Source: Phyllosticta citribraziliensis
Lineage: Eukaryota
Assembly (NCBI RefSeq): GCF_038025025.1
Contig: NW_027117344.1
Coordinates: 1,860,001 to 1,924,000 of the forward strand
DNA length: 64,000 nucleotides
Reading direction: 5' to 3'
The translations under genes were made by a program, and so were the position numbers. The notes below the pieces were generated by a model, which worked only from the letters and a program-made list of their open reading frames with translations, had not been told where the DNA came from and did no database searches. Positions 1 through 53,824 of this stretch are shown one piece after another (position 1 is the stretch's first letter; each line of letters opens with the position of its first letter).

Positions 1-78
1 GCGCTTATTTCGAAGATTGGCTTGTGTTGCTTATTTGGAAGAGGAACTTGGGCATTGGTTAACAGTCTTGGGGGACAG

Positions 79-1884
79 GTCAAGGATTCGAATAAGATTC
101 AATGCTACTGTCCTGCGACGGGCGAGCTGCTCGACACGATCGAACCGGCGACGGAACGCGACATTGACAATGCGGTTGAGCGGGCGAAAGCGGCACAAGA
201 GAAGTGGAGACAGACGAGCTTTACAGAGCGGAGGAAGGTGCTGAAGTCGTTGCTCAAGTGCGTACATATTGAGGGGGAAATGCTGTCGCGACACACTTGT
301 AGCGGTTGAACAAAGGCGAGGAAAATGCTGATTAGGAGCCCTCGTATTGCAGATTTGTCCTGGAAAACCAAAAGACCATTTCGACGGCAGCCTGCTTGGA
401 CAGCGGAAAGACACGATTGGATTCGAGCTTTGGCGAGATTCTGGTGACTGCGGAGAAGACCAAATGGACAATTGACCATGGAGAAAAGGCATTGAAGCCT
501 GAGAGCAGACCGACCAATTTTTTGATGATGTACAAGAAGAATGAGGTTCGATGGGAGCCTTTGGGTGTGGTGGCTGCTGCTGTTAGCTGGAAGTAAGCTT
601 TCACCAAGTTCCCCGAGCACGGCAATGTACTGACTTTGTCTCTAGCTACCCCGTGAGTCTTGAGCAACATCATCAGCGTTCAATCTAACTTCAAGCTAGT
701 TCCACAATCTTCTAGGCCCCATCATCTCCGCGCTCTTCTCCGGTAACGCTGTGATTGTCAAAGTCTCGGAGCAGACTGCCTGGTCCTCCAGGTACTTCAC
801 GTCGATTGTTCACGGCGCCCTCTACGCTTGTGGCCACGGGTATTGCGAAGATCTTGTCCAATCTCTCGCTTGCTGGCCTGCAGTGGCACCTCACCTCACG
901 TCGCATCCGGGCATCTCACACCTCACTTTCATTGGCTCGCGGCCTGTCGCTCACAAGGTGTGCGAGTCGGCCGCCAAAGCGCTGATACCCGTTTGTGTAG
1001 AGTTGGGAGGAAAGGACGCAGCGATCGTCCTCGACGACGTACGCAACCTTGAGAAAGTCGGACACATTCTGCTGCGCGGCGTCTTCCAAGCAGCTGGCCA
1101 GAATTGCATTGGCATCGAGCGTGTCATTGCGATGCCCAAAGCCTACGACAGCTTGGTCAAATTCCTCACGCCCATAGTCAACTCCCTGCGCAGCGGCTCA
1201 GCACTCTCACTCGAGGCCAAAGGCGCTACCAACGAAGCCATCGACGTCGGCGCATCCATCTCCCCAGCCGGCTTTGACCACCTCGAATCCCTCATCCGCG
1301 ATGCCGTGGCCCAAGGCGCACAGCTTCTCGCCGGCGGTACGCGCTTCACCCATCCCGAACACCCATCCGGGCATTACTTTGCGCCAACGCTGCTCGCCAA
1401 CGTGACGGCCGACATGGCCATTGCACAAACCGAGTGCTTCGCGCCCGTCTTCCTCCTTATGCGCGCCGAGTCTGTGGAGCACGCCGTGACGCTCGCCAAC
1501 AGCACCGAATACGGACTGGGCGCCTCCGTCTTCGGTTCTTCGCGGCGCGACCTCGAGTACGTCGTCGACCGCGTGCAGAGCGGCATGGTATCGGTCAACG
1601 ACTTTGCCGTCTACTACGCCGTGCAGCTGCCGTTTGGCGGCGTCAAGGGTAGCGGATACGGCCGCTTTGCCGGCGAGGAGGGCCTTCGCGGCCTCTGCAA
1701 TACCAAGGCTGTCTGCCGCGATCGCTTCCCGGGCGTCATGGAGACGGGCATTCCGCCTGAACTGCGGGTTCCCGTTCCCAATGCGCAGAGGTCGTGGGAG
1801 GTGGCTAGTGGGGTTGTTGAGCTGGGGTATGGTGAGTCGATTGCGAGGAAAGTTGCTGGGTTGAGGAAAATTGTGGGGATTTGA
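79..1884 (+). CDS. MSC7: Aldehyde dehydrogenase, Msc7-like; 5' end lies outside the window. Exons ~79-257, 353-592, 646-652 (micro-exon), 700-1884
   Basis: The spliced product gives KIQCYCPATG...EPLGVVAAAVSWNYPFHN, LTFIGS, catalytic VELGGKD, catalytic Cys in GQNCIG, TECFAP and LPFGGVKGSGYGRF. GT-AG introns with CTRAC branch sites join these in frame. Confidence 0.88.
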
Positions 1885-2140: not shown

Positions 2141-3408
2141 TTACCTGCCAGAGGCAAGGTTCTGGGGAGCCTCGGTGGGCGGGCCCTCGGGGGTGACGTA
2201 GGCCTGCAGGAGGAATGTATCAGCAACCGCACATACAGGCGAGAGAGAAAGACGGGGATTGCTCACCTTGGTCATGCCGCCGTCGACGACAAAGTCGGTG
2301 CCGTTGACGAAGCTGGACTCGTCGGACGCCAGGAAGACGACGGCCTGAGCCTGCTCGATGGCCTCGCCGAAGCGGCCGGACGGGAAGTGGACGGTGCGGC
2401 GCAGACGCTTGGGTTGGTCGTCGCCGAGCCAGTCTTGGAGGAGAGGGGTGCTGAGCGGGGTTAGTCAAGGGGTCCATTTGGCCGGAAAAGGGGGCAGGGG
2501 CTGGAAAGCATACTTCAAGGGGGCAGGGCACAGGGCGTTGAAGCGGAAGCCCTCGCGGGCGTGGACGACGGCAAGCTCGCGGGTCATGGCGAGGACGGCG
2601 CCCTTGGAAGCGGTGTAGGCGAGCTGGGGCGTGGCAGAGCCAACAAGGGCGACAACCGACGCCGTGTTGATGATGGAGCCGCGCTTCTTGCCGTGCTTGC
2701 GCAGCGACAGGACGGCGTGCTTGGAGCCGAACCACACGCCCTTGACGTTGATGTTCTGCGTCAGGTCCCAGATCTTCTCGGGCGTGTCGACGGCGTCGGC
2801 GTCGTCGGCGTGCATGATGCCCGCGTTGTTGAAGATGACGTCCACGCCGCCCCATGCGTCGGCTGCGTCGACCAGCGCCTTGACGCTGTCCTCCTTGGAC
2901 ACGTCCGTCACCTTGGTCTCGATGACGGCCGACGATGGCAGCAACTCGCGTGCCTTGGCCTGCGCCTTTTCGAGAGCTGGCCCGCTGATGTCGGCCATGA
3001 TGACCTTGGCGCCTTCGCGCGCAAAGAGAATGGTGGTTTCAAGACCGATGCCACTGGGAGTTGTTAGCCAGGGGCTCGGCGTCTTCTTTCAACTGCATCT
3101 GTCAAAATGGACAAGGTCTAAGCTAATCTAGTAAAATTCCTTCCATGGTCATTCTGTAATGTCTCCACGGCTTTGTTCAACGTCATGCCATGTGACGACA
3201 GAAGCAAATTTCGACGTGTCCAATTTTCAGCTCTAACCCGTATTCTTCGCCGCTCTTTTGATCTCGCAAAATGCAAAGTAAAGAGTTTGGAGACGGAAGC
3301 AGATGGAAATTGATGCTACAAAATAACCAAGAGGTAGACTTACCCAGCAGCACCGGTGACGATGGCGTTCTTGCCGGCAAGACGGCCACGGGGAGCTTCG
3401 GCAGACAT
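2141..3408 (-). CDS. Short-chain dehydrogenase/reductase (classical SDR). Exons 3408-3344, 3053-2514, 2450-2267, 2203-2141
   Basis: Spliced product MSAEAPRGRLAGKNAIVTGAAGGIG (TGxxxGxG), NNAG, catalytic YTASK, C-terminal VVDGGMTKAYVTPEG. All splice sites are canonical and in frame. Confidence 0.93.
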
Positions 3409-4450
3409 GATGAAGGCTCTGTTGAAGGGCGGACGGAGAAGCTACAACGAGATGGATGAACGAACTGAGCGGATGAAGAGAAATCGAAGAGGCCAGAGAA
3501 CGAAGAGCCGACTGAAAGCTGGCGATCTTGATATGTGTCTGGTCGGGCCGGGGTTTTGGAGCCGCTTTGGTCTAAGCGTCAGACCGGCGTGCAATGACAC
3601 ATTGAAACGTGGTGACGAAAACTGCGTGGTTGGAGCAGTGAACAGGAGTGGAAACGCACGTACTGAAGCAATTGGCCAGAATCAGAAGGTCCAGGCGGTG
3701 GTTCGAGGTGGACAGATGGATGGCTGGTGGGTGTGGAGAGGCCAAAGAAGCCGACCCTTGAAGCTCAAGCTGGGCTCCCTGGCTTCCGCGTCCCGAGTCG
3801 GCATGCGTCGGGGAGCTCTCCGATTGCGGCTCTTTGGCGTCTCGCGCGCCGAGCTGATAAGCTCTTTCATGCTTCATCATGGATGGTGGTCAGCGATTAC
3901 TTCAACTGGTGACGCACGCACGCGCGCTGCAGCACGCCTTTGCGGGGTTCCACGAAAATGACGCTGTTGCAGCTCGCGTGCGGCGAGATGGGACGAATTG
4001 CGACGCTCTGGAGGATGTTGAGGGCATGGAAGCTCGTTGGCAGCCGACGCAGCCTACTGCTTGTTCGACATGTGGTTGGAATACACAAACGACGGGAGAA
4101 TACATATATGCATGAAGTGACATGTCTAAGCAGTTAACGGCAAAGCGCCCGTGGCTTCCCTTGCAGCACAGATCTGCCGTCACCCGCTTATCGGGAACTC
4201 CCTCGCCCATGAGGTCCACCGGCAGTCGAGGAGAGAGCCTGACGCGTGCCCAGTCCAGAGCCAGTGCCCCTACCAACCAGCCCACCCCACATTCCATACG
4301 CCATGTGCTCTCTCCTTCGTGCTCCGCACCCTTAGCACATTTCCGACGTCTCTCTTTTCCGCGCCCCCCGTCATCTCCCTACTCCTCCATACCGCTCCTT
4401 TGTCCTAGACTCTGCTCCTGCGACCCGACCCTCCTTGCCAGCATCCCACC

Positions 4451-6060
4451 ATGTCGACGCCAAACCCCTCCGAGATAACCGTGGCGCAACTGCCAGAAAT
4501 CCTCAAGGACGATGCCGCCGTCAAGGTCGGCGGCGTAGATATTGACGGCATGTTGCGCGGCAAGCTCATGGCCAAGTCCAAGTTTTTGTCCGTCGCGGAA
4601 AAGGGCTTCGGCTTCTGTTCCGTCGTCTTTGGCTGGGACATGCACGACCAGACCTACTTCAAGGAGCTCAAGGTCAGCAACGCCGAGAATGGCTACCGCG
4701 ACATCATCGCCATCCCGGACCTCAGTTCCTTTAGGAGAATACCCTGGGAAAATGACGTTCCCTTCTTCCTCGTCTCCTTTGTCGACCCGGACACCAACGA
4801 GACCCTAAACACCTGCCCGCGATCGCTGTTGTCGAGAACCGTGGACAAGCTCAAGGCCCAAGGCATGGGCGCCATGGCAGGAGGTACGAAACACCATCTG
4901 GGGTGCACATGAGCATCTAGCGAGCCGCGGAGCTGTGCACTTGGCCTCTGGACGGAGCTGACCTCGCTCTACCTCGACAGCCGAGTTTGAGTTTTACCAG
5001 TTCAGAGCTCCCACATCACACGACGGCCCCGAGGCCAACTCGTCCTCGACCGCACAGTTCCTCAAGGACAAGCCCGTACACCAGCTTCCATCCCTGACCG
5101 AGGGCATGTTTGGCTACAGCTTGACCCGGCCGGTACACAACCAGGAATGGTACTACAGCGTTTTTGATACTTGCTCCAAATTCAGATGCGGAATCGAGGG
5201 CTGGCACACGGAGAGCGGACCTGGCGTTTTTGAGGCTGTAAGTCGACGTCGCAGCAGGATAGGTTCGAGGTTAACGGTGAATACAGGCGCTCGAGTTTGG
5301 CGAAATCAAAGAAATGGCAGACAGGGCTGCGCTTTTCAAGCTTACGGTCAAGTCGATTGGATCCAAGTTTGGAATCACGCCTTGTTTCATGGCAAAACCG
5401 CGCGCGGGACTCCCAGGAAACAGCGGCCATATGCACGTCTCGCTCGTGGACAGCGCTGGCAAGAACCTGCTTTGGCGCGGTGAGGAGGACCTTAATGCGC
5501 CCTGGCCAGATGTGCGCTACCTGTCCGACATTGGTAGGCATTTCCTTGCAGGCCTTATTGACGGTCTGCCGGACGTCATGCCGATATTTGCACCCACCAT
5601 CAACAGCTACAAACGGCTGGTCGAAAACTACTGGGCTCCCGTCACTGTGTCGTGGGGCTTGGAGCACCGCGCAGCATCGATCCGCGTCATCACCCCACCC
5701 ACAGCCTCGCCCAAGGCGACGCGGTTCGAAGTGAGGGTTCCCGGCGCCGACACAAACTCACACCTCGTGCTGGCGACGATCCTGGCTCTGGGATGGCGGG
5801 GCGTGGAGAAGAAGATGGAGATCAAGCTTCCGCCGCTGGGCAAGGGGCAGGATGTGGGTGGTGCGGCGGACAAGGGGGAAAGGCTCGCAAAGAGCTTGAA
5901 GGACGGGACAGCGACCATGATGCGCCCGGGCAGTGTGGCAAGGGAAGCTCTTGGCGACGAGTTTGTGGAGCACTTTGGCGGCACGAGAGAACACGAGATC
6001 AAGCTGTGGGATGAGGCGGTCACGGATTGGGAGGTCAAGAGATACATCGAGACTGTATGA
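4451..6060 (+). CDS. Glutamine synthetase-like protein (gamma-glutamyl-amine ligase type, GlnA4/PuuA-like). Exons 4451-4883, 4981-5237, 5287-6060
   Basis: GVDIDGMLRGK, GAEFEFY, HTESGPGVFE, FMAKP...GNSGHMHVS, APTINSYKRL, EHRAASIR and RFEVRVPGAD are GS-catalytic-domain motifs of the bacterial-type GS-like class rather than eukaryotic GSII. Confidence 0.9.
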
Positions 6061-6948
6061 GGATGGAGTCGAGAAAGTAGGCTTGGCCTGGGGAAGTTTT
6101 GTGATATCCCTATCTCATTGTACAGATATCCTTGTCAATGGATGCTCCACACTTCTGGATACCCTTGGTGGTTTTGACGGAGGGCTGACGCTTGATTGGC
6201 TGACACATGCATCACCAGCTCGGCTCCAATGGAAAGCAACGTCGAGCTCCGGCTTGTCAGGGACCGGCGCGCCACGATCCCTGGGCTTCGGCTCAGCAGC
6301 TCGAACGTCAACAGAGGTTGCCCAGGGGCGGTCAAAAGCAACGCAAAGGTTTTACTGGGCACCCCCCATGTTGCAGTCTTGCCTTTGCCTCAGATCTCCT
6401 ATCTCGTGTTCCAGCAGCGTCGGCACGTTAGTCGAGCTGAATCTAATCTGAAAGCTCGACGAAGCTAATCTAGCGCCCAGGTCAGAGCTGCGAGCGTCCA
6501 GGGACTGCCAGCTGCAAACCACAACCAATAACTGCAGTATTCTACAGCTGCTTCGGAAGCAAAAGTCCAAAACACTTCTTTTGTGCCAAGAACGGACGAT
6601 GCTTTAGGCATGTACCCACTCGCCAAGCCCGCGCTGAAACGCCCCGCATCACCGTCGCTGGCGAGCAGCACGAGGCAAATACACCAGCTAATCATTACTT
6701 AACAGGAGGGCGCCTAGGAATACGCGTACCGATTTTGCCTCTCTTTTCCTGCTTTTGAACCCCTCCCACTGACTCTCGCCCCGAGACCAAACATCCCAGG
6801 ATTTTCGCCTTGGCTACCTGCGGTAGTAAACAATCCACAACATCCCCCTTCACAACCCCCGACGCACCCCCTCGAGCGCCTCGGCCAATTTTGTGCAACC
6901 CCTCCAAGCAAGGGCACCACCGCCCTCTGCCCTGCGCCACGCATCGGC

Positions 6949-9900
6949 ATGCCGGACAACTTTGAACTGCGTGGCAAATACCACGCCGTCGACAAGAACA
7001 ACCCCCACGACCTCTACTCGGACAATCCGAAGCGCCACGTCCGCAACACCTCCTACCACTCCGACACGCCTTACCCGCCCTCCGACCACTCGTCCGACGT
7101 GGAATCTCTCGACGAACTCGACCCGCTCCACGATGGCCGCAGCAGTAGCAAACGCCGCAAAGCGCGGACAGAGTCGCAAATCGGAGCCGGTGCAGGCGAG
7201 GAGTCGGCTTTTATCAGCAAGCTGCGCGGTGGCGCCGACGGGGACACTGGCATCAATCCGTTGCGACATCGAATACTGCGGCGGCCGTGGATGAACCGCA
7301 TCTTCAACAAGAACCGCATGTTTTGCTGGCTGGTGATACTCTTCGTTGTTGTATTGCTGCTGTTGCTGAGCGTCGGTGGCATCTGGGCGTGGACGAGCTC
7401 GCCCGTCAGTGGCAAGAGTCCTCCCTGGTATCCGGCGCCACACGGCGGAAACGATCCGGCGTGGGCAGATGCCTATGCGAAGGCGGCGGAGATGGTGCGC
7501 CAGATGACGCTGGTTGAAAAGGCCAACATAACTACGGGAGTGGGCTGGGCCATGGGACTGTGCGTGGGGAATACGGGTCCCGCAATGCGTCTGGGATTTC
7601 CGAGTCTCTGTTTGCAGGACGGTCCTTTGGGCATGCGGTTCGTGGACAATGCAACGGCGTGGCCCGCTGGCATCACAGTCGGCGCAACCTGGAGCAAAGA
7701 TTTGATGTACAAGCGCGGCAGAGCGCACGGCGAGGAGGCACATCTGAAAGGCGTCAATGTGCTGCTCGCCCCGGCCATGGGTCCGTTCGGCCGCCTGCCC
7801 GCTGGCGGCAGGAACTGGGAGGGGTTCGGCTCTGACCCTGTTCTGCAAGGCACCGGTGCCATGTGGACAATCAAGGGCATCCAAGACGCGGGCGTCATAG
7901 CGACAGCAAAACACTACGTGGGGAACGAGCAAGAGCATTTCAGGCAAAGCTTCGAATGGGGAACCCCAAACGCCATTTCCTCCAACATCGACGATAGGAC
8001 GCTGCATGAGATTTACGCCTGGCCGTTTGCCGACAGCGTGCGAGCTGGAGTTGGAAGCGTCATGTGCTCGTACAACCAAGTCAACAATTCTTATGCCTGT
8101 CAAAACAGCAAGCTGTTGAACGGGATTTTGAAAGATGAGCTCGGCTTCCAAGGATTTATTCAAAGTGATTGGCTTGCACAAAGGAGCGGAGTTGCAAGCG
8201 CCCTTGCGGGCCTCGATTTGAGCATGCCTGGGGATGGGCTCCACTGGCAGGATGGGACGCCGCTCTGGGGACCGGAACTCACAAAGGCAGTGCTGAACAG
8301 CTCGGTCCCCGTGGAACGCTTGAATGATATGGTCACTCGGATCGTCGCAACGTGGTATCAACTCGGACAAGACGACACGCAAAAATGGCCCCTGGCTGCC
8401 CCCGAAGGGGACGGCACGCCCAACTTTTCGTCTTGGTCTGACGAAGCCGAGGGTCGACTGCACCAGGGCAGCGATGACAAGACAAAGGCCGTGGTCAACA
8501 AGTTCATCAACGTCATGGGAGACCCAGCAGCTGAAGGCTCGCACGCGAGGCTTGCTCGCAGGATTGCCGCCGAAGGCACGGTCATGGTCAAGAATGAAAA
8601 CAACACGCTCCCGATTACAAGAGATGGAATCAGCCAAGCGAGTGGCTTCACGCACAACAAGGACGACTTTAAGGTGCGCATCGGCATCTACGGCGAAGAC
8701 GCACGCGCAAACCCCAAAGGCCCCAACGCTTGCCAAGACCGTGGTTGTAATGAGGGAACCCTGGGGTCTGGATGGGGGAGCGGAGCAGCCGACTTTCCTT
8801 GGCTCATCACGCCGTACGAGGCTCTCCGCCGCGAGTTCAATAATGACAGCGTCATTCTTCACGATTATTTGGCCAATGACATCCCGACCACCAAGCTCCG
8901 CCTTCTCGAGCAGCAAGACATGTGTCTTGTGTTTGTCAACAGTGACGCTGGTGAAGGCTTTTTGTCGTGGGAAGATGTCAAGGGAGACCGCAACGATCTG
9001 TACACGCAGAAGGGAGGCGACGAGCTGGTCAAGTCGGTCTCCGCGCACTGCGGGCCAGACGGCAAGTCTCCTGTCATTGTCGTGGTGCATGCCGTAGGCC
9101 CGGTGATTCTCGAAAACTGGATCAACCTTCCCAATGTCAAGTCGGTCCTCCTGGCGCATCTCCCTGGACAAGAATCAGGAAATGCCATTGTCGACATTCT
9201 CTTTGGCGACGAAAACCCCTCGGGACGCCTCCCCTACACCATTGCTCGGGCAGAAGAAGATTATGGCCCACACAGCCGCATCATGTACTATCCGAACGGC
9301 GTCGTCCCGCAGCAAAACTTTACCGAAGGCCTATACGTCGACTACCGCCACTTTGACGCCGCCCAAGTGACGCCCCGCTACGAATTCGGCTACGGCCTCT
9401 CGTACAGCGAGTTTTCCATCGGTGACCTGGTCATCACGGTCGACGTGTCCAAGAAATCCATGCTTCCAGCGCCCCGTCCCAACATCACATCTCCCTTGCC
9501 GCCACACTACAAAGAAGACATTCCCCCGGCTTCGGAAGCCGTGTGGCCCCTCGACTTCCGCCGCCCCCTCAAAAAGTACATTTACCCGTACATCTCGTCG
9601 GCGTCGGCGCCCGGCACCAAAAAGGGGCGATACCCCTACCCAGAAGGCTACTCGACGAAGCCGCACGAGGGCAGCCCCGCGGGCGGCGGGCCCGGCGGCA
9701 ACCCAGACCTATACTCGATCGTGGCCAACGTCAGCTTCGTGGTGCGCAACGAGAGCCCCGATCGCGCCGGCTGGGCCGTCCCGCAGGTCTACGTCTCGTA
9801 CCCCACGGGCTGGGTCGATCCGGAGCGCTCGTCTGCGCTGTCGTCCAAACCCAAGCAGACGGGCAGAGGCCGCCTCGGCGACGCGCCGCACCCGGTCGTC

Positions 9901-10272
9901 TCGGCCTCCGTCTCGACGCTGCCGCCCGCCGTCTCGACACCATCACTGTCTACGCCGACATCATCCTCATCCTCCGCACACGCCAAACCGACCTTCCCGC
10001 CCCAGATCCCCGGCCGGCCGCCCGACTTCCCCGTGCGCGCGCTGCGCGGCTTCGACAAGGTGTTTCTGCAGCCGCAGGGGCAAGACGGGGATTCGGCGAC
10101 GGTCGTCGTCGGCCTGACGCGGCGCGACCTCAGCTTCTGGGATACCCGCCGCCAGAACTGGGTCATGCCGACGCTGCAGGGGCAGGAGGGGCCGGACGAC
10201 ACGCACCAGGGCGAGTTTGGCGTGTGGGTTGGCTGGAGCAGTCGCGATTTGAGGATTAGCGGTGTTGTTTGA
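6949..10272 (+). CDS. bglE: GH3 beta-glucosidase with an N-terminal cytoplasmic tail and a signal-anchor helix (BglE-like)
   Basis: Intronless 1107-aa ORF. TM segment LVILFVVVLLLLLSVGGIW; LCLQDGPLG, GGRNWEGF, AKHY, VMCSYN, nucleophile QSDW, PSGRLPYT; C-terminal FnIII-like domain (PRYEFGYGLSY, LRGFDKV). Confidence 0.92.
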   Translation: MPDNFELRGKYHAVDKNNPHDLYSDNPKRHVRNTSYHSDTPYPPSDHSSDVESLDELDPLHDGRSSSKRRKARTESQIGAGAGEESAFISKLRGGADGDTGINPLRHRILRRPWMNRIFNKNRMFCWLVILFVVVLLLLLSVGGIWAWTSSPVSGKSPPWYPAPHGGNDPAWADAYAKAAEMVRQMTLVEKANITTGVGWAMGLCVGNTGPAMRLGFPSLCLQDGPLGMRFVDNATAWPAGITVGATWSKDLMYKRGRAHGEEAHLKGVNVLLAPAMGPFGRLPAGGRNWEGFGSDPVLQGTGAMWTIKGIQDAGVIATAKHYVGNEQEHFRQSFEWGTPNAISSNIDDRTLHEIYAWPFADSVRAGVGSVMCSYNQVNNSYACQNSKLLNGILKDELGFQGFIQSDWLAQRSGVASALAGLDLSMPGDGLHWQDGTPLWGPELTKAVLNSSVPVERLNDMVTRIVATWYQLGQDDTQKWPLAAPEGDGTPNFSSWSDEAEGRLHQGSDDKTKAVVNKFINVMGDPAAEGSHARLARRIAAEGTVMVKNENNTLPITRDGISQASGFTHNKDDFKVRIGIYGEDARANPKGPNACQDRGCNEGTLGSGWGSGAADFPWLITPYEALRREFNNDSVILHDYLANDIPTTKLRLLEQQDMCLVFVNSDAGEGFLSWEDVKGDRNDLYTQKGGDELVKSVSAHCGPDGKSPVIVVVHAVGPVILENWINLPNVKSVLLAHLPGQESGNAIVDILFGDENPSGRLPYTIARAEEDYGPHSRIMYYPNGVVPQQNFTEGLYVDYRHFDAAQVTPRYEFGYGLSYSEFSIGDLVITVDVSKKSMLPAPRPNITSPLPPHYKEDIPPASEAVWPLDFRRPLKKYIYPYISSASAPGTKKGRYPYPEGYSTKPHEGSPAGGGPGGNPDLYSIVANVSFVVRNESPDRAGWAVPQVYVSYPTGWVDPERSSALSSKPKQTGRGRLGDAPHPVVSASVSTLPPAVSTPSLSTPTSSSSSAHAKPTFPPQIPGRPPDFPVRALRGFDKVFLQPQGQDGDSATVVVGLTRRDLSFWDTRRQNWVMPTLQGQEGPDDTHQGEFGVWVGWSSRDLRISGVV

Positions 10273-11387: not shown

Positions 11388-12181
11388 TCACAGACCAGCC
11401 ACGACAGCGGCGCCCAGGCCAACGAGCAGGCCCCAGGCGCTGAGGGGTTCGAAGGCGGCGACGGCAGCCGACGTACCCGATGCCGTCGCGTTGGGAGCGG
11501 TGCCGGTCGAAGTCGCGGTGGTGCCGGATTCGGACTGGTTGGCGTTGGCATTGGTGTTTGTGAACTCGGCCGAGACGCCCGTGCTGTTGGAGCAGTGGGC
11601 ATTGTAGTCGGACTCGGAGAGGGGCGCGGCGGTGAAGGTGACGTCGGCGCACTGAATGTTTGTGTTGTGATTAGCTTGTGCTGCTATTGTGTGGTTTGCG
11701 CGTGGAGCTGGGGTGCAAGAAAGACTGCGGCGAGATGGGGAAGAATGAGGTGGGGGCGTACCTGGTACAATCCGCCATCGGGATCGCCGTTGGTGACGAC
11801 CTGGATGGTCGCGTTGGTGCCCTCGCTGATGTTCATGCCGCCCAGCATGCCGGGCACGACGACGCCTCCCAGACAAAAGTCATTGGGTCCGCGCTCGCGC
11901 AGCAGCGGCCGCAAGACGTAGTTGAAGGCGGGACCGACGTCGTTGCCCAGACCAATCAGCACTTGGACGTTGGCCTCGGTGTGGTGCATGTCGAGCTGGA
12001 TGGGGAAGGGCGCGTTGACGGGAATCATGGTGCGGTTGGTGCTGGGCGTCTCGAAGCCGCCGCATGGGTACTCGGCGGCCTTGTCGTCGTTAAAGCCGCG
12101 CGCGGTGGGCCAGTTCAAGAGGAAGTGGGCAGAGGCCAGCGAAGGGCCCAGCAGGATGAGTGGAGTCGAGGTGAGGCGCAT
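11388..12181 (-). CDS. GPI-anchored His-brace copper-binding protein, Bim1/X325 (LPMO-like) family. Exons 12181-11762, 11651-11388
   Basis: Signal peptide ending ASA followed by mature HFLLNWPTARGF..PCGG (His1). Second His in DMHH, NGDPDGGLYQ|CADV (Asp ligand region) across the intron, S/T/A-rich stalk, hydrophobic GPI-signal C-terminus. Confidence 0.85.
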
Positions 12182-12609
12182 TTTGGTGGTCGCGGTTCAA
12201 TTGGTTTCCTTGTTGTTGGTTGGGTGAACTGGTGTTGTGAGAGGAGGGAGTGGAAACGGAAATGATTTCCAAATGGGCGTCGGGCTTTGAATATAGCAAA
12301 GCTGAAGCGGGGAGGCGGAATGGAAGGGAGTTAAGGTTTGCGTCTAAAGTGGAGGGTTCAGCTGACGGGAGGAAGTCGAGAGGGTTTTGATCGTGTTTGA
12401 TGGACGGTAGGGGAGGTGGATAGAGTGGATGTGAGCAATCCGAGAGAGATTTAAATGGGCAGCTTGTCCAGGACTACATGTACAGTACATGCAGATGGAG
12501 ACAGGGCTGGTCCAGATGTTTGGGCGGGCCGGGGCGACGGACCAGTTGATGACAGCGGAGTCTACGGTACCTTACGGTACCAGAGGAGTAGGGTACATGG
12601 GATGCGCGC

Positions 12610-12892: not shown

Positions 12893-13525
12893 TCAGTGCT
12901 CCGCCATGGCCTGCACGTAGCGCCCCACTAGCACCTCTCCCAGGAATGTGCCGCCGAGAATTGACATGAAGTATCCCACATTGAGCGTCATTATGGCGAG
13001 CATCCTGTGCCAGTGTTAGCAGCATCCAGCGTGATGAGCACATCCGATGGACTCTTACAGCAACCAGCCGACTCCAGCAATCACCGTGGCAAGCAAGGCG
13101 CGGGGCAGATCGACGCTGAATCTCCACGGCTGAGGACCCTTGATTTGCTGCTGTGTGACGACGACGTTTTGTTCCACGCCATTGACCATCAGAGTACCCG
13201 GGCTGCTGCTCGCGTCCTGCTTGATGCGCTCCGACTCGGGTGTCTGGCCCGCCACCACGACGTAGCGGCGCTGAAGGGCTTGGGCCAGCCATCGCTCCTC
13301 GATGATGCTTTTGGCTGCAAAGAGCGCCCGCCAGGCCACGGCCAGGGCTATCAGGAAGATGCAAGTGGCCGCGTACTGTCCGACCGTGTGTGGCGTCCAT
13401 TGGTCCGAGTAGAGCGGCGTAGTGGAGCTGGCGAAGAAGGTCATGCGCATTGCCGACACGTCCATGGAGCTCATGTCGCCGCCAGACATGTCCATGCCGG
13501 ACATTTCATCGTGTCGTTTAATCAT
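12893..13525 (-). CDS. Ctr-family high-affinity copper transporter. Exons 13525-13059, 13004-12893
   Basis: N-terminal Mets motifs (MSGMDMSGGDMSSM, MRMTF), LYSDQWTP, TM1, MLAIM (MxxxM in TM2), NVGYF, GGTFLG (GxxxG in TM3). Confidence 0.93.
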
Positions 13526-13730
13526 TCTTGGCCAAAAGCGTCGCGGAGGAGGCCAGGCGGGAATTGATTCGGGGACGAGCACGAGGTTGTCGGTGCGCGA
13601 ACGATGGCGCAGTTTCCAGACTGCTTCTCCGAGGCCTGGATGTCTGATCTGGAGGCAGTGGCGTTGTTATAAGCGTTGGGGAGAAGTGTTGAAGGACGGA
13701 TGCGAACGAAGCGAGGGGGAACTTGCGCAG

Positions 13731-14180: not shown

Positions 14181-16510
14181 ATGAAGGCCAGAAGGCATGA
14201 CATGTCCGGCATGGACATGACCGGCATGGGCGGCATGTCGTCGTCCAGCCCCACCGGCTTGCCGTCGCTGCAGCTTTTTCAAAAAATGTACTGGGCCGTC
14301 GTGGGCGCCTTTGTCGCAGCCGCGACGCTGGTAAACATCACCAACTACATGATCTACCGGCAGAGGTGGGTACACGCGCACATCTCCCGCTGGATCCACT
14401 TCGACTGACATCATCTAGATTGTGGGCCGCCCAGCACGGTGACCCAACTCCTGCAAAACCAAAGTCTTTGGCCTCACGAATCAACGCGACTGCAACAGCA
14501 ATCCTTCGAGAAGCGACCAATGCCACATTCGCGCCATGGGTGGTCCGCGGCTTCCGCTTGCGCGTGCCGACTGTCGGCAACACATTTCTGGTCTTGGCCA
14601 ATGCAGCGACGCTTCTGGCCCTGTGCTTCTATGGTTTCAACCTAAATGACCAATGGTCCTTTGAAGACATTGGCTACCGCACTGGCTGCATGTCTGTGGC
14701 GCAGCTGCCTCTAATCTTCTTGCTGGCCGGCAAAAACAACATCATCGGTTGGTTGACTGGCTCGAGCTACGAGCGCCTAAACTGGCTGCACAGATGGGTG
14801 TCCCGCACGCTGCTACTCACCGTCACGATCCACATGGGGTACTGGTTTGGAGACTGGGCTCCATACAACTACATTGGCGACAAGATCCGCACCGACTCCA
14901 TCACACAACACGGCCTGATTTCCTGGTGCCTGCTCCTATGGATCACGTTCAGCTCCGCCGCTCCAATTCGTGGTTGGCGCTACGAGGTGTTCGTGATTCA
15001 GCATCTAATTTCATTCGCCGTCTTCCTTGCCTTTGTCTACAAACACGTTAGCTCCTGGCCAATGTACGTCCGGGTCTACGTTTGGATTCCGGTCGCCCTC
15101 GTTTGCTTTGACCGCTTCGTGCGGGCCGCCTGGATGCTCTACACCAACGTTTCCCTCTTCCATCCCAAGCCGCGGCGCAATGGCCACATGTCTGGCATCT
15201 GGGCCTGCAAAGCCGATTTCACGCCTCTGCCTCACAACACTACCCGTGTGACCATCAAAAACCCACCGATATCTTGGAAACCCGGGCAACATGTGTTCCT
15301 CTCCTGTCACTCGGTCGTTCCTCTCCAAAGCCACCCGTTTTCCATTGCATCAATTCCAGGCGACAAGCAAATGGAATTCTACATCAAGTCTGAAAATGGT
15401 GCCACCAAGCGCTTCTTGGCACATGCCGAAAAGGTTAACATGCTGCCAGCTAATGCAGCATCCGCCGCCAAGACGACCAAAGCGGTCACCATTGATGGAC
15501 CATATGGCCGGATCAGGCCCCTGCGTCAGTTTGACAGCGTTGTTTTATTTGCAGGCAGCACGGGTGCGACCTTCATCATGCCTTTGCTGCGGGACCTAGT
15601 TGCGCATTGGCAAACCCGAGCCGATTCCGCTCCGCACAAACGTTCCGGAGTCTTTTCACAGCCCCCCGGCGCCATTGCGACCCGCCGCGTCCGCCTGGTC
15701 TGGGTGGTCAAGTCGCGCGGGCAGCTGAGCTGGTTTGCGTCGCAACTCTCGCTTGTCCAGGACCAGGTTGCGCAACTGCACTCGTCGGGCGCAGATATCG
15801 ACGTAGAGTCGAGCGTCTATGTTACTTGCGATCCCAGCTTTACAGAGGAGCAAAAATCGCAATCGACAACTGCGAGGCCCAGTAGAGTCGTCGAGGAGCA
15901 GCCCCAATCGCCCGACACAGTCGCCGGCCCCTTTATAGACGAAAAGAAGCGCGCATCTGGTGACAGGTACAGCGAACGCGAGGTGGATGACAGCAACGCG
16001 TCTACACTTGGCGAAGGCGACGAAAAGAATACTCAGGCGTGCCCCGACGACACTTGCTGCTGTACCGCAACAGTCGAAGATGAGGATGCCATTTCAGCCG
16101 CTAACCGCGAATGCACCTGCGGCGTTAACCCTAACAGCAACAAAACCCGCGATCCCAATCCTCCTGTCAATGCCGGCACCGAGATTCCTACAAACGCCCC
16201 ATCTCCTCCTTCCTCTCCACCCCCTTTTACCCCTCTAATGACCTCTCCCTCGCCCTCATCGCCTGCCAACAATAACGCTACTCCACTGCATCCCGCCATC
16301 CACATTTTAGCCGGCCGCACGCACCCACGGAGTGTGATTCGCAAGAGTCTGGAGCAGGCCCTGGGCGAGACGGCTGTCGTGGCGTGTGGGCCGGTTGGGC
16401 TGGTGGATGACTGCAGAGACAGCGTGGTCCGCCTCAGTGATGAGCGCGCTGTGCATAAGGGAACTGGGGCGCAAGGCGTTTGGTTTCATGGGGAGAGGTT
16501 TGGGTGGTAG
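14181..16510 (+). CDS. Ferric/cupric reductase transmembrane component (FRE family). Exons 14181-14365, 14419-16510
   Basis: Bis-His heme helices WLHRW...TIH and QHL...YKH, PGQH, FAD motif HPFSI, DGPYG, AGSTG, CGP and terminal ERFGW. Confidence 0.93.
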
Positions 16511-48123: not shown

Positions 48124-49803
48124 CTACTGTCCGCCAACTTGCTTCAGAATTCCAGCAAGGTTGATGCTCTTCGGTCGCTCAATAGGAAGACCCAGCGCGC
48201 GGTCCCAGACGAGTTGTGCAAGGGGCCCAAGTCCACGGCTGACGCCAAAGGTCGCCGTGTAGTACAGAGTCTCTTTGAAACCATAGTAGTGGAAGAGAAC
48301 ACCAGAGGAGGAGTCGACGTTGGGGAAGGGGTTTTTGGTCTGTTAAGGAAAGATCGTCAGTCTCAGGTCAAACTCAATAATATGGCCAGATCGCTCAGGA
48401 TACAATCCAGCTTGAATCGGCTTACCTTTCCATGCTCATTCAGGACATCGGGAGCAACTTCAGAATTAATCTTTACGAGCTGGAAGACGGGATCACTGGC
48501 AATTTCTGGACGTGCTGAAGCAAAGTCCATCAGTGCTTGAAAGCGCGGGTCGGGCTTTCGAAGTACGGCGTGTCCATAGCCAGGAATGACACGTCCAGAC
48601 TTGAGTGTAGTCCAAAGATAGTCTTTGACGTCTGCAGGCTTGAAGTTTGAGGGAATCGACTCCTTCATCTGAAGGATCCAACGAAGGACTTCTTGCGCCG
48701 CGAGTCCGTGAAGTGGTCCCGCCAGGCCTTGAAGCCCAGCACTGTAGCTCAAGAATGGATCGCTCAGTGCGCTTCCAACCAAGTGTGTTGCGTGTGCAGA
48801 GACATTGCCGCCTTCGTGGTCACCGTGTAGGGCGAGGTAAAGCCTGAGCAAGTCCTGGAAACCCTCATTCTCCTTTCCACCTTTGCCCAACATGGCTGCA
48901 AAATTGTATGACCAATCTTGGTTCAAATCAACCTTGGCAGGCAATGCACCTCCGCCGCGGTAGGCGTTTTGATAAATCTTGGCAGCAATGGTGGGCAGTT
49001 TGGCGAGCAAAGAGATAGAGTCATCAAAAGTGGGCTCCCAGTAGTCGGCCTTGTTCAATCCCTTTTCGTACAATTTGGCAAACTTGGACTCGTAGTTCAA
49101 TGCGGAGACTGCACAAGCAAACTGCGTCATGGGATGCAAGTCTTTGGGGAAGTCATCCAGCATCTTTTCCACGAACTTGGGGATTGATGCCTTCTCAGCG
49201 AGTTCGCGGGAAAGCTGTCGCACCTGAGCTGTCGATGGAACTTCGCCGGTGATGAGAAGCCAAAACATGGCCTCGGGTAACATTTCTGTGCCGCTGGTAC
49301 CCTTGGGCAGCTCTTTCTGGCAGTCTTTGATGGTGCGCCCATGAAAACGGATGCCCTCGTTGGGATCTAGGACAGAGCCTTCCCAGACCATAGCCTTCAA
49401 ACCCCTATATTCTCTTAGCCTCCTTTTGTGTGGCCAGATACCGAAAAGCATACCTCATACCACCAAGTGTGTTTTCCACCTTGACATCGCCGAGTTTCTT
49501 GTCTGCATGAGCTTTGACTTGCTTCAACAGCTCTCGCTTCTCGGGAATGACTCTCTTGAGTGTGCTCTTGAGATCTGGTTCGGAAGAGGAGGCATAGCCG
49601 CGCGTTTGGTGGATGGCTTGGACTACAGGTGGAGTGAGCGAAGCGGGATGCGGCACAGGAAGAGAGGATAGTACCAGTGTGGATTGGCTGAAGCACTGAC
49701 GGCTGTTGAAATGTTAGATAAACTCGTCGGTGTTCACATAGCTCCAGAAACTTACTCTGAGGCTCCTGAGAGTCCTGGAGGCTACACGCGCTTTCAATGC
49801 CAT
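48124..49803 (-). CDS. mcsA: 2-methylcitrate synthase (citrate synthase family), mitochondrial, multi-exon
   Basis: Arg-rich mitochondrial presequence, [51 protein letters not shown]. Divergent pairing with the methylisocitrate lyase supports the methylcitrate assignment. Confidence 0.88.
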
Positions 49804-50143: not shown

Positions 50144-50312
50144 CATTCTTTGGTTCCTTTCGCCCTTTGAACCATAGTCTGGTCCCGCCGTCTACGCCGC
50201 GAAACGTCCAGGGCCCAATTCAATTCCCGACCGACAGCAGCCGCTCAAGACTGGCGCGGTGGACCCTCAATTCGCAGGGTAACCTGATCCAGCATCCCGG
50301 CCGGTTCTCAAC

Positions 50313-52241
50313 ATGCTTCGCGGCGCTTCCCGCACTCTGTCGAGACAGACTCGCCAGATTCCTCGCGCTCGATCTGGAGCAGTCCTTCGTCCATTTTCGT
50401 CCTCTGCATACCGCATGACTTCTGCCCTTCCTCCCGTCTCGCCACCAGTCTCGACCGCATTGCCCTCCGACTCGTTCCAGCTTCTTTCCGAGACAGACAA
50501 GCAAGGCCCCATTGAAGATGCCCTTTTCGATGCACAGGTGCAGCAGGTCGAGCAATGGTGGGCATCTCCACGGTACGAGGGCATCAAGAGACCATATTCG
50601 GCCGAAGATGTGGTCAGCAAGAGGGGAGCTCTTCAGCAAACCTACCCAAGCTCGTTGATGGCCAGGAAACTGTTCAACTTGCTCGAAAAGCGCATAGCAG
50701 ATGAAGAGCCAGTTCACACAAGTGCGTGTCCCGCGCCCGAGGCAGACATTCGGCATCCCTAGCGATACAAACTTGGCTAATATTACTGGAATCTTCACAG
50801 TGGGCGCAATTGATCCAGTGCAAATGACCCAACAAGCACCGAACCAAGAAATTCTCTACGTGTCTGGCTGGGCCTGCTCCTCCGTCCTTACCACCACAAA
50901 CGAAGTGTCTGCTGATTTCGGCGACTACCCATACAACACCGTGCCAAACCAAGTCCAGCGTCTTTTCAAAGCACAACAGCTCCATGACCGCAAGCACTGG
51001 GATACTCGTCGGAAGCTGAGCCCAGAAGAGCGCGCCAAAACTCCATACGTCGATTACATGCGCCCAATCGTTGCTGACGGCGACACGGGCCACGGCGGCC
51101 TCAGTGCTGTCATGAAGCTTGCGAAGCTGTTTGCTGAGAACGGAGCCGCTGCCGTGCACTTTGAAGATCAACTTCACGGCGGTAAGAAATGCGGGCATCT
51201 CGCAGGCAAAGTTCTCGTTCCCATCGGCGAGCATATCAACCGCCTCGTCGCCGCTCGTTTCCAATGGGACATTATGGGCAGCGAAAACTTGGTCATTGCA
51301 CGGACAGATTCAGAAAGCGGCAAGCTGCTGAGCAGCGCCATTGATGTGCGAGACCACGAGTTCATCTTGGGTGTGGCCGACGATGTCGAGCCCCTGGCCG
51401 AAACTCTGCAAGAAATGGAGCTCAAGGGAGCCAGTGGCGCTGAGATTGATGTCTTTGAGGCAAAATGGGTCAAGCAGCACAAACTGTGCACATTTGACGA
51501 AGCCGTCAAGGCACATCTCGAGTCTGAAGGTGCTTCAAAACAGACCATCCTCTCATACATCGCCGAAGTGAAAAAAGACCCCAACCTCTCGCTCAGCAAG
51601 CGCCGCGCTCTCGCCTCGGGTCACAGCAAGACTCCAGTCTTTTGGTCTGAGAACATTCCCCGCACGCGCGAGGGATATTACCACTACCGCGCTGGACTGC
51701 CCGCCGCGACCAAGCGCGCCGTTGAATTCTCACCGTATGCCGACCTGCTTTGGCTCGAGACCAAGGAGCCTAGCGTCAAGCTGGCAGCGCATTTTGCCGG
51801 CGAGATTCATGCCAAAACGACTCCGAACAAGAAGCTCGTCTACAACCTGAGCCCCAGCTTCAACTGGATGGCGCACGGCTTCTCGGAAGAGTCGCTCAAG
51901 AGCTTCATTTGGGACTTAGCGCGCCACGGCTTCGTGCTGCAGCTGATTTCGCTCGCAGGCCTGCACAGCACAGCCACCATCACGAATGAGTTGAGCAAGG
52001 CGTTCAAGGAGGATGGCATGCTGGCGTACGTCAACTTGGTGCAGAAGAGGGAGAAGGAGACGGGCTGCGACGTCTTGACGCATCAGAAGTGGAGCGGCGC
52101 GAGCTATGTTGATGGCATGCTTGGTGCAGTCCAGAGCGGCAGTTCGGGTAGCAAGAGCATGGGCGAGGGAAATACTGAAACCAGTGAGTACCATTTTCCA
52201 TCCGTTCAAGGTTCAATCACTCACAATGACTAGACTTTTGA
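50313..52241 (+). CDS. mclA: 2-methylisocitrate lyase, mitochondrial (ICL family). Introns ~50722-50800 and 52184-52233
   Basis: [18 protein letters not shown] and QLISLAGLH (L/S where glyoxylate-cycle ICLs have QFITLAG). N-terminal mitochondrial presequence. Confidence 0.9.
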
Positions 52242-52820: not shown

Positions 52821-53824
52821 TTACAGGTTCTCGTGGAAGAATTCCAGGACAGTCTTGTAGCCACGGGTGTACTCGTGCTTCACGCGGTCGTCGCTGAGGT
52901 CGGAGCTGCAACAGCGGTCAGCTTTCGTCAGTGAGTGGTCAGTCATGTTCTCACCGAGCAGCCATGAAGCCGTGGATCTGGTCGTTGAAGAACTCGACCT
53001 TGTTCTTGACCTTGAGACCATCCTGCCACTGCTTGACGGCATCCTTGTCCTCGTCCTTGGAAGGCAGCATGGCGATGGGGATCGTGATGTTGGGGGCATC
53101 CTTGGGGTCAACCATGGCCGGGTGAGCGGCGGCGGCGACCTTGAATTTGGAGCCAGAGGTGGAGACCAAGTTGACAATCTGGTGCGGTCAGCATGTGCGT
53201 CCCCAAAAGCAAAAAGATCATGTGTACCTTGCCGCCCCAGCAGAATCCCAGAATGGCCCAAGACTCAAAGCCCTGCACCTTGCTGTTGATTTCCTCGACG
53301 ACCTTGGGGACGCGCGCTGCCGTCTTGGCTGGCGCAGCGGGGCCCCCGAAGAAGTCGCCGAGCTTCTTCTTCTTCTCGTCATTGTCAGGTGGGTACCAAG
53401 AGATGTCGGCGGGGTTGCCCTCGAACCAGTCGGGCATGAAGACTTGGTATTTGCGGTGCTCGTCGGACTGGGCGAGAATGTCGGCGCCTTGGAGAGTCTG
53501 GGGGAAGAAGCCGAAAATGTCGTAGATGACCAAGATGGCATGCTTAGCGTCCGAAGGACCGGTGTGGTCTGGGAAATATCAGTTTGGAAGGTCGGTTTGT
53601 GAGTGCGGGGTAGTCACTGCTTGGATGCCGTGACTTGCAACAGCAATTGAGGTTGGCAGGAGGTCGTACATGTCTTCAAGCCATCAATGGTGATGTATTG
53701 GCCTTTGGCCTTGTAGTCATGGCTGACAATGGGCGGAATAGAGCAGCCTTGAAGATGTCAGCATTCGACGACCATGGTGGGGAGCGGGGTAGAGCTCACA
53801 AGCAGCAGAGTGTTGAGAAGCCAT
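52821..53824 (-). CDS. Dienelactone hydrolase family protein, multi-exon
   Basis: MASQHSAACCSIPP, YDIFGF, nucleophile elbow GFCWGGK, AHPAMVD, HGFMAAR. Confidence 0.9.

Follow-up and report, generated by a model that had tools for sequence, protein, structure and literature searches.

A divergent gene pair for a glutamine-synthetase-like ligase and a short-chain dehydrogenase in Phyllosticta citribraziliensis: a candidate route for gamma-glutamylation of amino alcohols

We analysed a stretch of 64,000 nucleotides from the fungus Phyllosticta citribraziliensis (contig NW_027117344.1, positions 1,860,001–1,924,000 of the forward strand), which we call the window and in whose positions all coordinates are given. 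Near its left end, a gene for a classical short-chain dehydrogenase/reductase (SDR) and a gene whose product resembles glutamine synthetase (GS) diverge from a common promoter region. Three genes at this end of the window encode proteins that are 98–100% identical to annotated Phyllosticta proteins. The features of the pair and its promoter are as follows.

2141–3408, minus strand: classical SDR gene, 283 residues (gene model; database protein P0121; Pfam adh_short and adh_short_C2; NF004713; tree)
3409–4450, no strand: shared divergent promoter region, 1,042 bp, between the two ATGs
3820–3829, no strand: CCGATTGCGG, inverted repeat of the form CCG-N4-CGG, 27 bp before the conserved GATAAG; candidate Zn2Cys6 regulator site
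3856–3861, plus strand: GATAAG site at −595 from the GS-like ATG, a conserved position
4187–4192, minus strand: second GATAAG, within the palindrome CCGCTTATCGG (4184–4194); motif search
4451–6060, plus strand: gene for the GS-like, predicted gamma-glutamyl ligase, 487 residues (gene model; database protein P0001; Pfam Gln-synt_C; active-site map; tree)

The GS-like gene consists of three exons (4451–4883, 4981–5237, and 5287–6060) separated by GT..AG introns of 97 and 49 nt. The SDR gene consists of four exons (3408–3344, 3053–2514, 2450–2267, and 2203–2141); its three introns measure 290, 63, and 63 nt and are of the GT..AG type, and its product ends in VDGGMTK followed by AYVTPEGPPTEAPQNLASGR. 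The rebuilt models of the GS-like and SDR genes agree with the database proteins P0001 and P0121, respectively, with no letter differing. An earlier note on this DNA, made from the sequence alone, had described two intron-containing genes arranged head to head around a promoter of about 1 kb with GATAAG at 3856 and 4187; every one of these statements is borne out by the rebuilt models, with three introns in the SDR gene and two in the GS-like gene. The public SDR model has 253 residues in P. citribraziliensis (P0123), as against 283 in P. citrichinensis (P0121) and in our rebuilt model, and an exon was probably missed by one of the annotations.

The ligase and its partner dehydrogenase

Pfam analysis of the 487-residue GS-like protein revealed Gln-synt_C, located on exon 3 (7.7e-61), as the sole domain; the N-terminal 144-residue exon and the middle exon had no Pfam match, and an amidohydrolase domain of the Aspergillus FluG type was absent. 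The highest-scoring NCBIfam match of the full-length protein was the type I GS family TIGR00653, with 206 bits against a cut-off of 429.15, and the score against the gamma-glutamylputrescine synthetase (PuuA) family NF045547 was 154 bits against a cut-off of 650. The active site was mapped by alignment to E. coli GlnA, in which the reference residues were checked and the numbering of S. typhimurium was used. This map revealed that (i) the residues for the two metals, adenosine triphosphate (ATP), and glutamate are all kept (E146, E148, E222, E229, H278, H280, G274, R340, R358, R363, E378, and R380); (ii) the ammonium positions are replaced, E327 of the catalytic flap by W346, Y179 by F188, and N264 by P273; (iii) the adenylylation tyrosine is missing; and (iv) the D50 column holds F70, in a poorly aligned loop from which we draw nothing. 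The residue equivalent to E327 is F331 in GlnA4 and W296 in PauA7 (PMC6529630), and replacement of this kind at the flap is described as typical of gamma-glutamyl ligases in general in a study of FluG (PMC6478659). W346 is such a non-polar flap residue, as found in gamma-glutamyl-amine ligases.

We placed the protein in a tree of 47 rows built by an IQ-TREE quick search, with supports from the Shimodaira–Hasegawa-like approximate likelihood ratio test (SH-aLRT) only and no bootstrap; its named references were E. coli GlnA and PuuA, and no sequence in it was named GlnA4. The fungal GS-like proteins were split from the GlnA proteins of E. coli and Glaciimonas with an SH-aLRT of 100%, PuuA stood on a long branch of its own, and the remainder formed two sister clades, which we designate I and II. 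Clade I (support 99) is formed by the 18 SDR-linked ligases taken from the SDR scan described below, which come from Actinomycetota, Chloroflexota, and other groups. Clade II (support 99) contains bacterial ligases and a single fungal clade (support 99), whose members range over a chytrid, Glomeromycota, Kickxellomycotina, Saccharomycotina, and Pezizomycotina; the SDR-linked ligases of two Planctomycetota loci, L014 and L022, also group in clade II with the fungal proteins. The ligase family looks old and vertically inherited in fungi. The tree position, the score below the TIGR00653 cut-off, and the replacement of E327, Y179, and N264 by W, F, and P all uphold the earlier description of the enzyme as a non-canonical GS-like protein.

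The W/F/P pattern is common to the clade II bacterial ligases that were checked, except for that of L001, which has L, T, and A. L001 and L163–L165 come from Glaciimonas soli, which carries two GS-like genes 12 kb apart besides a true glnA, and the second of them groups loosely with PuuA on a long branch. The second-best solved relative of the fungal protein is PDB 5dm3 (E = 7.9e-40), which we take to be an enzyme of Chromohalobacter salexigens; the M. tuberculosis isoform structures 9WRK–9WRM were not among the sequence matches of the fungal protein.

The SDR matched Pfam adh_short and adh_short_C2 and has the features of classical members of its family, namely the motif TGAAGGIG (TGxxxGxG) and the residues N124, S154, Y168, and K172, which are invariant in the alignment. 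In SDRs, an aspartate at the end of strand β2 generally indicates a preference for nicotinamide adenine dinucleotide (NAD). The fungal protein has such an aspartate, D43, which points to the use of NAD and hence to an oxidative role. Its best NCBIfam family is NF004713 (PRK06057), in which P0121 scores 281 bits, 66 above the next family (215 bits). The bacterial SDRs that pass the cut-off of this family, from an Acidimicrobiaceae locus (L232, 465 bits) and a Rubrobacteraceae locus (L220, 455 bits), lie in operons with GS-like and aldehyde dehydrogenase (ALDH) genes; the remaining bacterial SDRs scored against it reached 262–359 bits.

The neighbours of the 80 closest bacterial relatives of the SDR (44–64% identity) were counted within 6 kb and comprised GS-like genes in 60 loci, ALDH genes in 58, C26 hydrolase genes in 32, and permease genes in 27, several of the misses being short contigs. 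A tree of 54 rows, consisting of every second one of these 80 loci together with FabG and four unrelated SDRs, was built by a quick search with no bootstrap. A 49-row clade of GS-linked SDRs (support 98) excluded FabG and the four other SDRs, and the fungal SDRs (support 100) were nested inside it as the sister (support 97) of a GS-linked subgroup from Chloroflexota, Planctomycetota, Acidobacteriota, and others; this nesting is to be read with caution, as the bacterial rows were chosen as best matches and the outgroups sit on long branches. Both the best family and the nested position in the tree agree with the grouping of the SDR with GS-linked SDRs that the earlier note had proposed.

Conservation of the pair and its promoter

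Among the best 120 matches per protein in named genomes, orthologues of both the ligase and the SDR, 75–87% identical, were found in Dothideomycetes, Eurotiomycetes, Sordariomycetes, Leotiomycetes, and Lecanoromycetes, and the SDR was also found in the powdery mildews Blumeria, Erysiphe, and Podosphaera. In the following genomes, the two genes are neighbours by locus tag or distance.

Paraphaeosphaeria sporulosa: ligase DPSP01_003508, SDR DPSP01_003507; consecutive tags
Paraphaeosphaeria minitans: ligase PMIN06_001797, SDR PMIN06_001798; consecutive tags
Emmonsiellopsis: ligase FQN50_006438, SDR FQN50_006437; consecutive tags
Pseudopithomyces: ligase GRF29_19g2622463, SDR GRF29_19g2620461; 2 kb apart

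A scan of metagenomes added 80 fungal loci of 61–82% identity. In 34 of them the sequence extends 2.5 kb or more upstream of the ligase; an SDR was present in 26 of these (19 divergent and 7 tandem) and missing from the other 8, and 10 more loci had an SDR fragment at the contig edge. Collapsing the 80 loci at 95% DNA identity left 52 lineages, 30 of them informative for the SDR, and the SDR adjoins the ligase in 25 of these 30 (22 divergent and 3 tandem). The pairing is conserved in other fungi; none of the three outcomes by which the proposal of the earlier note would have fallen was observed.

The spacers between SDR and ligase of 24 non-identical fungal loci (25.9 kb in total; those from metagenomes include the short SDR exon 1 and an intron) were compared with first-order Markov simulations, which are a simple model, and the loci are related, so that the counts are not fully independent. 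With these limits, HGATAR occurred 140 times against 67.9 ± 8.7 expected, a count reached in 0 of 300 simulations, and GATAAG occurred 39 times against 10.7–10.9 expected, in 22 of the 24 spacers. In an unbiased ranking of 2,075 hexamers over the same spacers, GATAAG stood first and other GATA-containing words came next, whereas elsewhere in the same loci (244 kb) GATAAG was found 77 times against 78 expected. A plus-strand GATAAG lies at −464 to −626 from the ligase ATG in 14 of the 24 spacers, including the window site at 3856 (−595). The AreA-type nitrogen control put forward in the earlier note gains unexpected support from this enrichment: the 24 spacers together have the clustered HGATAR sites of an AreA-type nitrogen-catabolic promoter. 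The window alone has two sites, which are unimpressive by themselves, as its 64 kb hold 9 GATAAG against 13.4 expected from shuffles and the two are not significant.

A second element accompanies the conserved GATAAG. Inverted repeats of the form CCG-N4/5-CGG occur 22 times in the spacers against 9.0 ± 2.9 expected, and 1 of 500 simulations reached 22; the corresponding repeats with spacers of 3, 6, or 7 show no enrichment. In nine spacers (those of the window, L096, L097, L099, L113, L114, L131, L134, and L160), the repeat lies about 20–50 bp upstream of the conserved GATAAG. Examples include CCGAAATCGG, CCGATTATCGG, and similar sequences, and the window has them at 3820–3829 and 4184–4194. 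The repeat is a candidate Zn2Cys6 site, which we treat only as a lead, as the pattern was spotted in the data before it was tested; the narrower form CCG[AG]WW(W)NCGG (9 against 0.8 expected) was written after the sites had been seen and is not counted as a test. Promoters of fungal nitrogen-catabolic genes typically combine a GATA site with a CGG-type palindrome.

Related bacterial operons and a proposed function

The bacterial context of the ligase was taken from its 80 closest GS-like loci (33–47% identity), found by a locus scan with a seven-sequence alignment. Of all 80, 68 encode an iron-type alcohol dehydrogenase, 50 a C26 hydrolase, and 55 an ALDH. If only the 55 loci that extend 4 kb or more beyond the ligase gene on its downstream side are counted, these numbers become 45, 40, and 47, and 38 loci have all three genes. 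By Pfam, the ligase gene of L018 and L025 is followed by genes for an iron-type alcohol dehydrogenase, a C26 hydrolase, and an ALDH, in this order, and in L025 it is preceded by an amino-acid permease gene; the Planctomycetota locus L022 encodes an upstream amino-acid permease, the GS-like protein, an SDR, and an ALDH; and the Planctomycetota locus L014 encodes the GS-like protein, an SDR, and an ALDH behind an upstream open reading frame (ORF) with no family match. The SDRs of L014 and L022 are 46–49% identical to the fungal SDR. A contig of an archaeal (Thermoplasmatota) metagenome-assembled genome, L035, has ligase, iron-type alcohol dehydrogenase, and ALDH genes by Pfam, and a class-II amidotransferase-like gene lies upstream of this set.

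Clade II bacterial ligases are the closest relatives of the fungal ligase, and their operons, found in Bacteroidota, Betaproteobacteria, Myxococcota, Planctomycetota, and the one Thermoplasmatota genome, are full four- or five-gene sets of permease, GS-like ligase, iron-type alcohol dehydrogenase (or SDR), C26 hydrolase, and ALDH. They differ from the fungal pair in that their alcohol dehydrogenase is usually of the iron type rather than an SDR, although L014 and L022 also pair the ligase with an SDR. In the bacteria of clade II, the ligase is almost always followed by an alcohol dehydrogenase (iron-type in 45 of 55, or an SDR) and not by an amine oxidase as in the Puu pathway, which argues for a hydroxyl group on the substrate.

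For Streptomyces and Phaeobacter, gene sets of this layout, in which a ligase is followed by an alcohol dehydrogenase, an ALDH, and a gamma-glutamyl hydrolase, have been proposed to break down ethanolamine. Besides glnA4 itself, the Streptomyces cluster encodes a short-chain dehydrogenase, an ALDH, a regulator, a transporter, and an amidotransferase (legend of Fig. 2 in PMC6529630), and the chemistry proposed there proceeds through gamma-glutamyl-ethanolamide, its aldehyde, and gamma-glutamyl-glycine to glycine and glutamate (PMC6529630). In Phaeobacter, the ethanolamine gamma-glutamylase operon is reported to be induced at the protein level on phosphatidylethanolamine (PMC10132767). The operons of Phaeobacter (MED193_10026–10056) and C. 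salexigens resemble the order proposed here in having a gamma-glutamyl-ethanolamide dehydrogenase and an aldehyde dehydrogenase (PMC10132767); these proteobacterial operons include a tripartite ATP-independent periplasmic (TRAP) transporter, and their ligases have low identity to the fungal protein.

The earlier note had likened the fungal locus to a glnA4 module, and this likeness holds in part. As in S. coelicolor, whose GlnA4 (SCO1613) is encoded within SCO1610–1615, a ligase that lacks the flap glutamate E327 is encoded beside a short-chain dehydrogenase, and the fungal SDR nests among the bacterial SDRs of GlnA4-type clusters. By contrast, the fungal ligase belongs to the sister clade (in a tree with no named GlnA4) and has W rather than F at the flap; the pair has no adjoining operon-type ALDH, amidotransferase or C26 hydrolase, permease, or regulator gene; and its genes have introns and a divergent eukaryotic promoter. 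The E. coli Puu pathway (PuuA, PuuB, PuuC, and PuuD) similarly masks an amine by gamma-glutamylation before oxidation and frees glutamate last by a C26 hydrolase; it differs in that a flavin-dependent (FAD) oxidase acts on the second amino group, instead of a dehydrogenase on a hydroxyl, and in the separate branch of PuuA.

With the gene models, family placements, active-site pattern, conserved adjacency, bacterial operon contexts, and motif enrichment as observed, we lean slightly towards a role of the pair in the nitrogen-regulated gamma-glutamylation of an amino alcohol, most likely ethanolamine, followed by NAD-dependent oxidation. Ethanolamine itself is perhaps the substrate, an assignment that we make only tentatively. 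In the proposed pathway, the GS-like enzyme would couple the amine to the gamma-carboxyl of glutamate at the expense of ATP, giving a gamma-glutamyl amide with a masked amino group, and the NAD-type SDR would oxidise the free hydroxyl of this amide to an aldehyde. Enzymes encoded elsewhere would complete the oxidation to gamma-glutamyl-glycine and the hydrolysis to glutamate and glycine; in many other fungi, a ligase-adjacent enzyme of the dienelactone hydrolase (DLH) family may perform the hydrolysis. The single divergent promoter would drive both genes under an AreA-type general GATA activator and a pathway-specific Zn2Cys6 factor. The pair would thereby probably give these fungi a hitherto undescribed way to use or detoxify ethanolamine-type amines. 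We infer the substrate, the direction of the SDR reaction, the catabolic role, and the regulators from sequence and genomic context.

A broader form of this proposal strikes us as doubtful. It holds that the pair represents a kingdom-wide, vertically inherited fungal route for ethanolamine-type amino alcohols, with a ligase/SDR core, a promoter under GATA and Zn2Cys6 factors, and a DLH-family enzyme in place of the C26 hydrolase, and that the stand-alone ascomycete proteins called ‘FluG-like regulators’ or ‘third glutamine synthetases’ would be enzymes of this route, their pleiotropy arising from an imbalance of amines or phospholipid head groups.

Several observations weigh against an ethanolamine-type catabolic role. 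The SDR remains below the NF004713 cut-off (281 versus 404 bits). The fungal ligase lies outside clade I, whose ligases are linked to NF004713-type SDRs and are presumably of the GlnA4 type, and sits in the sister clade II, where the ethanolamine assignment of the bacterial members is itself inferred. The sister group of the fungal SDRs is partnered with clade I ligases, so that the bacterial affinities of the two proteins are discordant; with such different nearest partners, the pair does not simply reproduce any single operon of the sample. It is accompanied by neither a C26 hydrolase nor an operon-type ALDH, and an adjacent SDR is absent in 5 of the 30 informative lineages. GATA sites may serve other GATA factors. 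The high conservation of the proteins and the presence of the SDR in powdery mildews can be accounted for by a core function no less readily than by an optional route of nutrition. Stand-alone ascomycete Gln-synt_C proteins are called FluG-like regulators and have pleiotropic phenotypes (PMC9426541).

This last point also favours a different function, in which the pair makes a gamma-glutamylated signalling or protective small molecule that the SDR tailors, comparable with the C-terminal ligase domain of FluG. The FluG, FlrA, and MoGln3 proteins are likewise fungal type I GS-like proteins lacking the acidic ammonium residues (PMC6478659), FluG is argued to work through a gamma-glutamylated intermediate (PMC6478659), and loss of FlrA in Beauveria is described as impairing stress tolerance, spore quality, and virulence (PMC9426541). 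Such a role would suit the very high conservation across classes and the retention of the SDR in the reduced genomes of powdery mildews. We consider it unlikely, as the bacterial relatives of both proteins lie in catabolic-looking operons with permease, ALDH, and hydrolase genes, the promoter is rich in GATA sites like those of nitrogen-catabolic genes, and FlrA and FluG are likened to the ligase by description rather than as demonstrated orthologues. FlrA-type proteins have Gln-synt_C as their sole domain (PMC9426541), as the fungal ligase does, and the rice blast protein MoGln3 has a single GS domain (beta-grasp in the paper), its deletion leaving glutamine unlowered (PMC8229676); Aspergillus FluG has an N-terminal amidohydrolase domain that the ligase lacks. 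The available parts of the papers on these three proteins mention neither an adjacent SDR nor an amine substrate (PMC6478659, PMC9426541, PMC8229676). We give little credence to gamma-glutamylation of some other substrate, a polyamine, another monoamine, or a xenobiotic arylamine, with the SDR acting on a different group or as a reductase. GS-like ligases do accept putrescine, polyamines, methylamine, and aromatic amines, as illustrated by PuuA according to its E. coli annotation and by PauA7 and GlnA3 as described in PMC6529630; the discordant bacterial affinities of ligase and SDR and the lack of a dedicated ALDH or hydrolase that stays with the pair would also be compatible with such a substrate. 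Against it stand the alcohol dehydrogenase, rather than an amine oxidase, that almost always follows the ligase in its bacterial clade and the low score in the PuuA family (154 versus 650 bits).

Two further explanations would dispense with gamma-glutamylation as a joint function. That the adjacency is inherited gene order with no functional link, the enzymes serving unrelated pathways, is improbable. Dothideomycete chromosomes keep their gene content while its order is shuffled, and the Msc7-like ALDH and the DLH-family gene described below are also loosely linked to the pair, through scaffolds common to many genomes and, for the latter, at a distance of 47 kb here. Against this, the ligase and SDR families are neighbours in bacteria too (60 of 80 loci), the pairing holds in 25 of 30 informative lineages while other neighbours vary, and in most cases the two genes diverge from a spacer that carries conserved motifs. 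That the GS-like gene encodes a second genuine glutamine synthetase we regard as extremely improbable, even though source databases label the protein ‘glutamine synthetase’ and TIGR00653 tops its family scores: the score of 206 bits is below the cut-off of 429, E327, Y179, and N264 are replaced, the adenylylation tyrosine is absent, and GlnA is separated by a long branch with 100% support. We rejected this candidate on its tree position, active-site residues, and sub-cut-off TIGR00653 score.

The chemistry and the bacterial operons of an amino-alcohol gamma-glutamylation route are already known. Our literature search, in which most subscription journals were not covered, found no fungal ligase/SDR pair and no fungal ethanolamine gamma-glutamylation. 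To our knowledge, gamma-glutamylation as a means of ethanolamine breakdown has been described only from bacteria, and we know of only genetic studies of fungal stand-alone GS-like proteins, as ‘regulators’ or spare glutamine synthetases. New features here are a two-gene eukaryotic core, introns, a divergent GATA-rich promoter, a ligase of another clade than GlnA4, and the lack of a C26 hydrolase. If the proposed role is correct, it would provide a concrete, assayable reaction for the stand-alone fungal GS-like family, explain a very widely conserved divergent gene pair, and suggest that plant-associated and lichen fungi could draw nitrogen from the recycled ethanolamine of membrane lipids. With its conserved GATAAG and CCG-N4/5-CGG elements, the promoter offers a test case for joint general and pathway-specific control.

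Neighbouring genes in the window

Two further genes bear on the composition of the proposed pathway.

1–1884, plus strand: Msc7-like aldehyde dehydrogenase gene, its 5′ end cut by the window; Pfam Aldedh
52824–53563, minus strand: DLH-family gene, 47 kb off; tblastn and Pfam DLH

The partial ALDH gene, with Pfam Aldedh segments at 1–309, 336–596, and 700–1881, ends at 1884, 256 bp from the SDR stop and tail to tail with it, so that the direct adjacency reported earlier is confirmed. Its orthologues are named ‘Meiotic Sister-Chromatid recombination aldehyde dehydrogenase’ by their sources, that is, Msc7-like. It shares 27–33% identity with the operon ALDHs, and NF006916 is the best NCBIfam family common to both. 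This ALDH shares a locus with the pair in 4 of the 80 metagenome loci (4 of 52 lineages), arranged in three different ways; many named genomes merely have it on the scaffold of the pair, and the locus tags of Sarea place it 40 genes away. The earlier note had called this ALDH Msc7-like and perhaps coincidental, and the orthologue names and the rarity of close linkage argue for both. We read the ALDH as loosely linked and probably not a member of the module, its adjacency being probably coincidental. It was rejected as a third member on its Msc7-like character, its 27–33% identity to the operon ALDHs, and its proximity to the pair in only 4 of 52 lineages.

Pfam revealed neither an amidohydrolase nor a C26 hydrolase in the 64-kb window, where 149 of the 164 ORFs of at least 125 residues starting beyond 6100 were searched (the 15 omitted ones overlap two long real ORFs in other frames), and tblastn of PuuD and of an operon C26 protein against the window gave no match; the earlier observation that the window lacks an amidohydrolase stands. 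In other fungi, a DLH-family gene is the most frequent neighbour of the ligase apart from the SDR; it lies directly beside it in 21 of the 80 metagenome loci (10 of 26 informative lineages), and in P0083 and P0099, both gene models of lichens, the two are fused. Its orthologue in the window, at 52824–53563, is 52% identical by tblastn to the neighbour of this kind in L112 and scores 23 bits against the Pfam DLH cut-off of 21; no DLH-family gene was present in any of the 165 bacterial loci. One may speculate that the DLH-family enzyme performs the hydrolysis in the pathway; its gene may equally be no more than a long-standing neighbour.

Directly downstream of the GS-like gene, a single open frame of 1,184 codons (6718–10269, plus strand) encodes a glycoside hydrolase family 3 (GH3) beta-glucosidase that contains an Fn3-like domain and a long insert rich in Pro and Ser; it appears unrelated to the pair. 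Three genes further along the window, for a BIM1-like copper acquisition factor (11687–12196, minus strand), a Ctr transporter (13058–13666, minus strand), and a ferric/cupric reductase (14201–16507, plus strand), stand side by side and look like a copper-uptake cluster. Genes of the citrate synthase family (48366–49454, minus strand) and the isocitrate lyase family (50283–52230, plus strand) are divergent and may form a methylcitrate-cycle pair for propionate breakdown.

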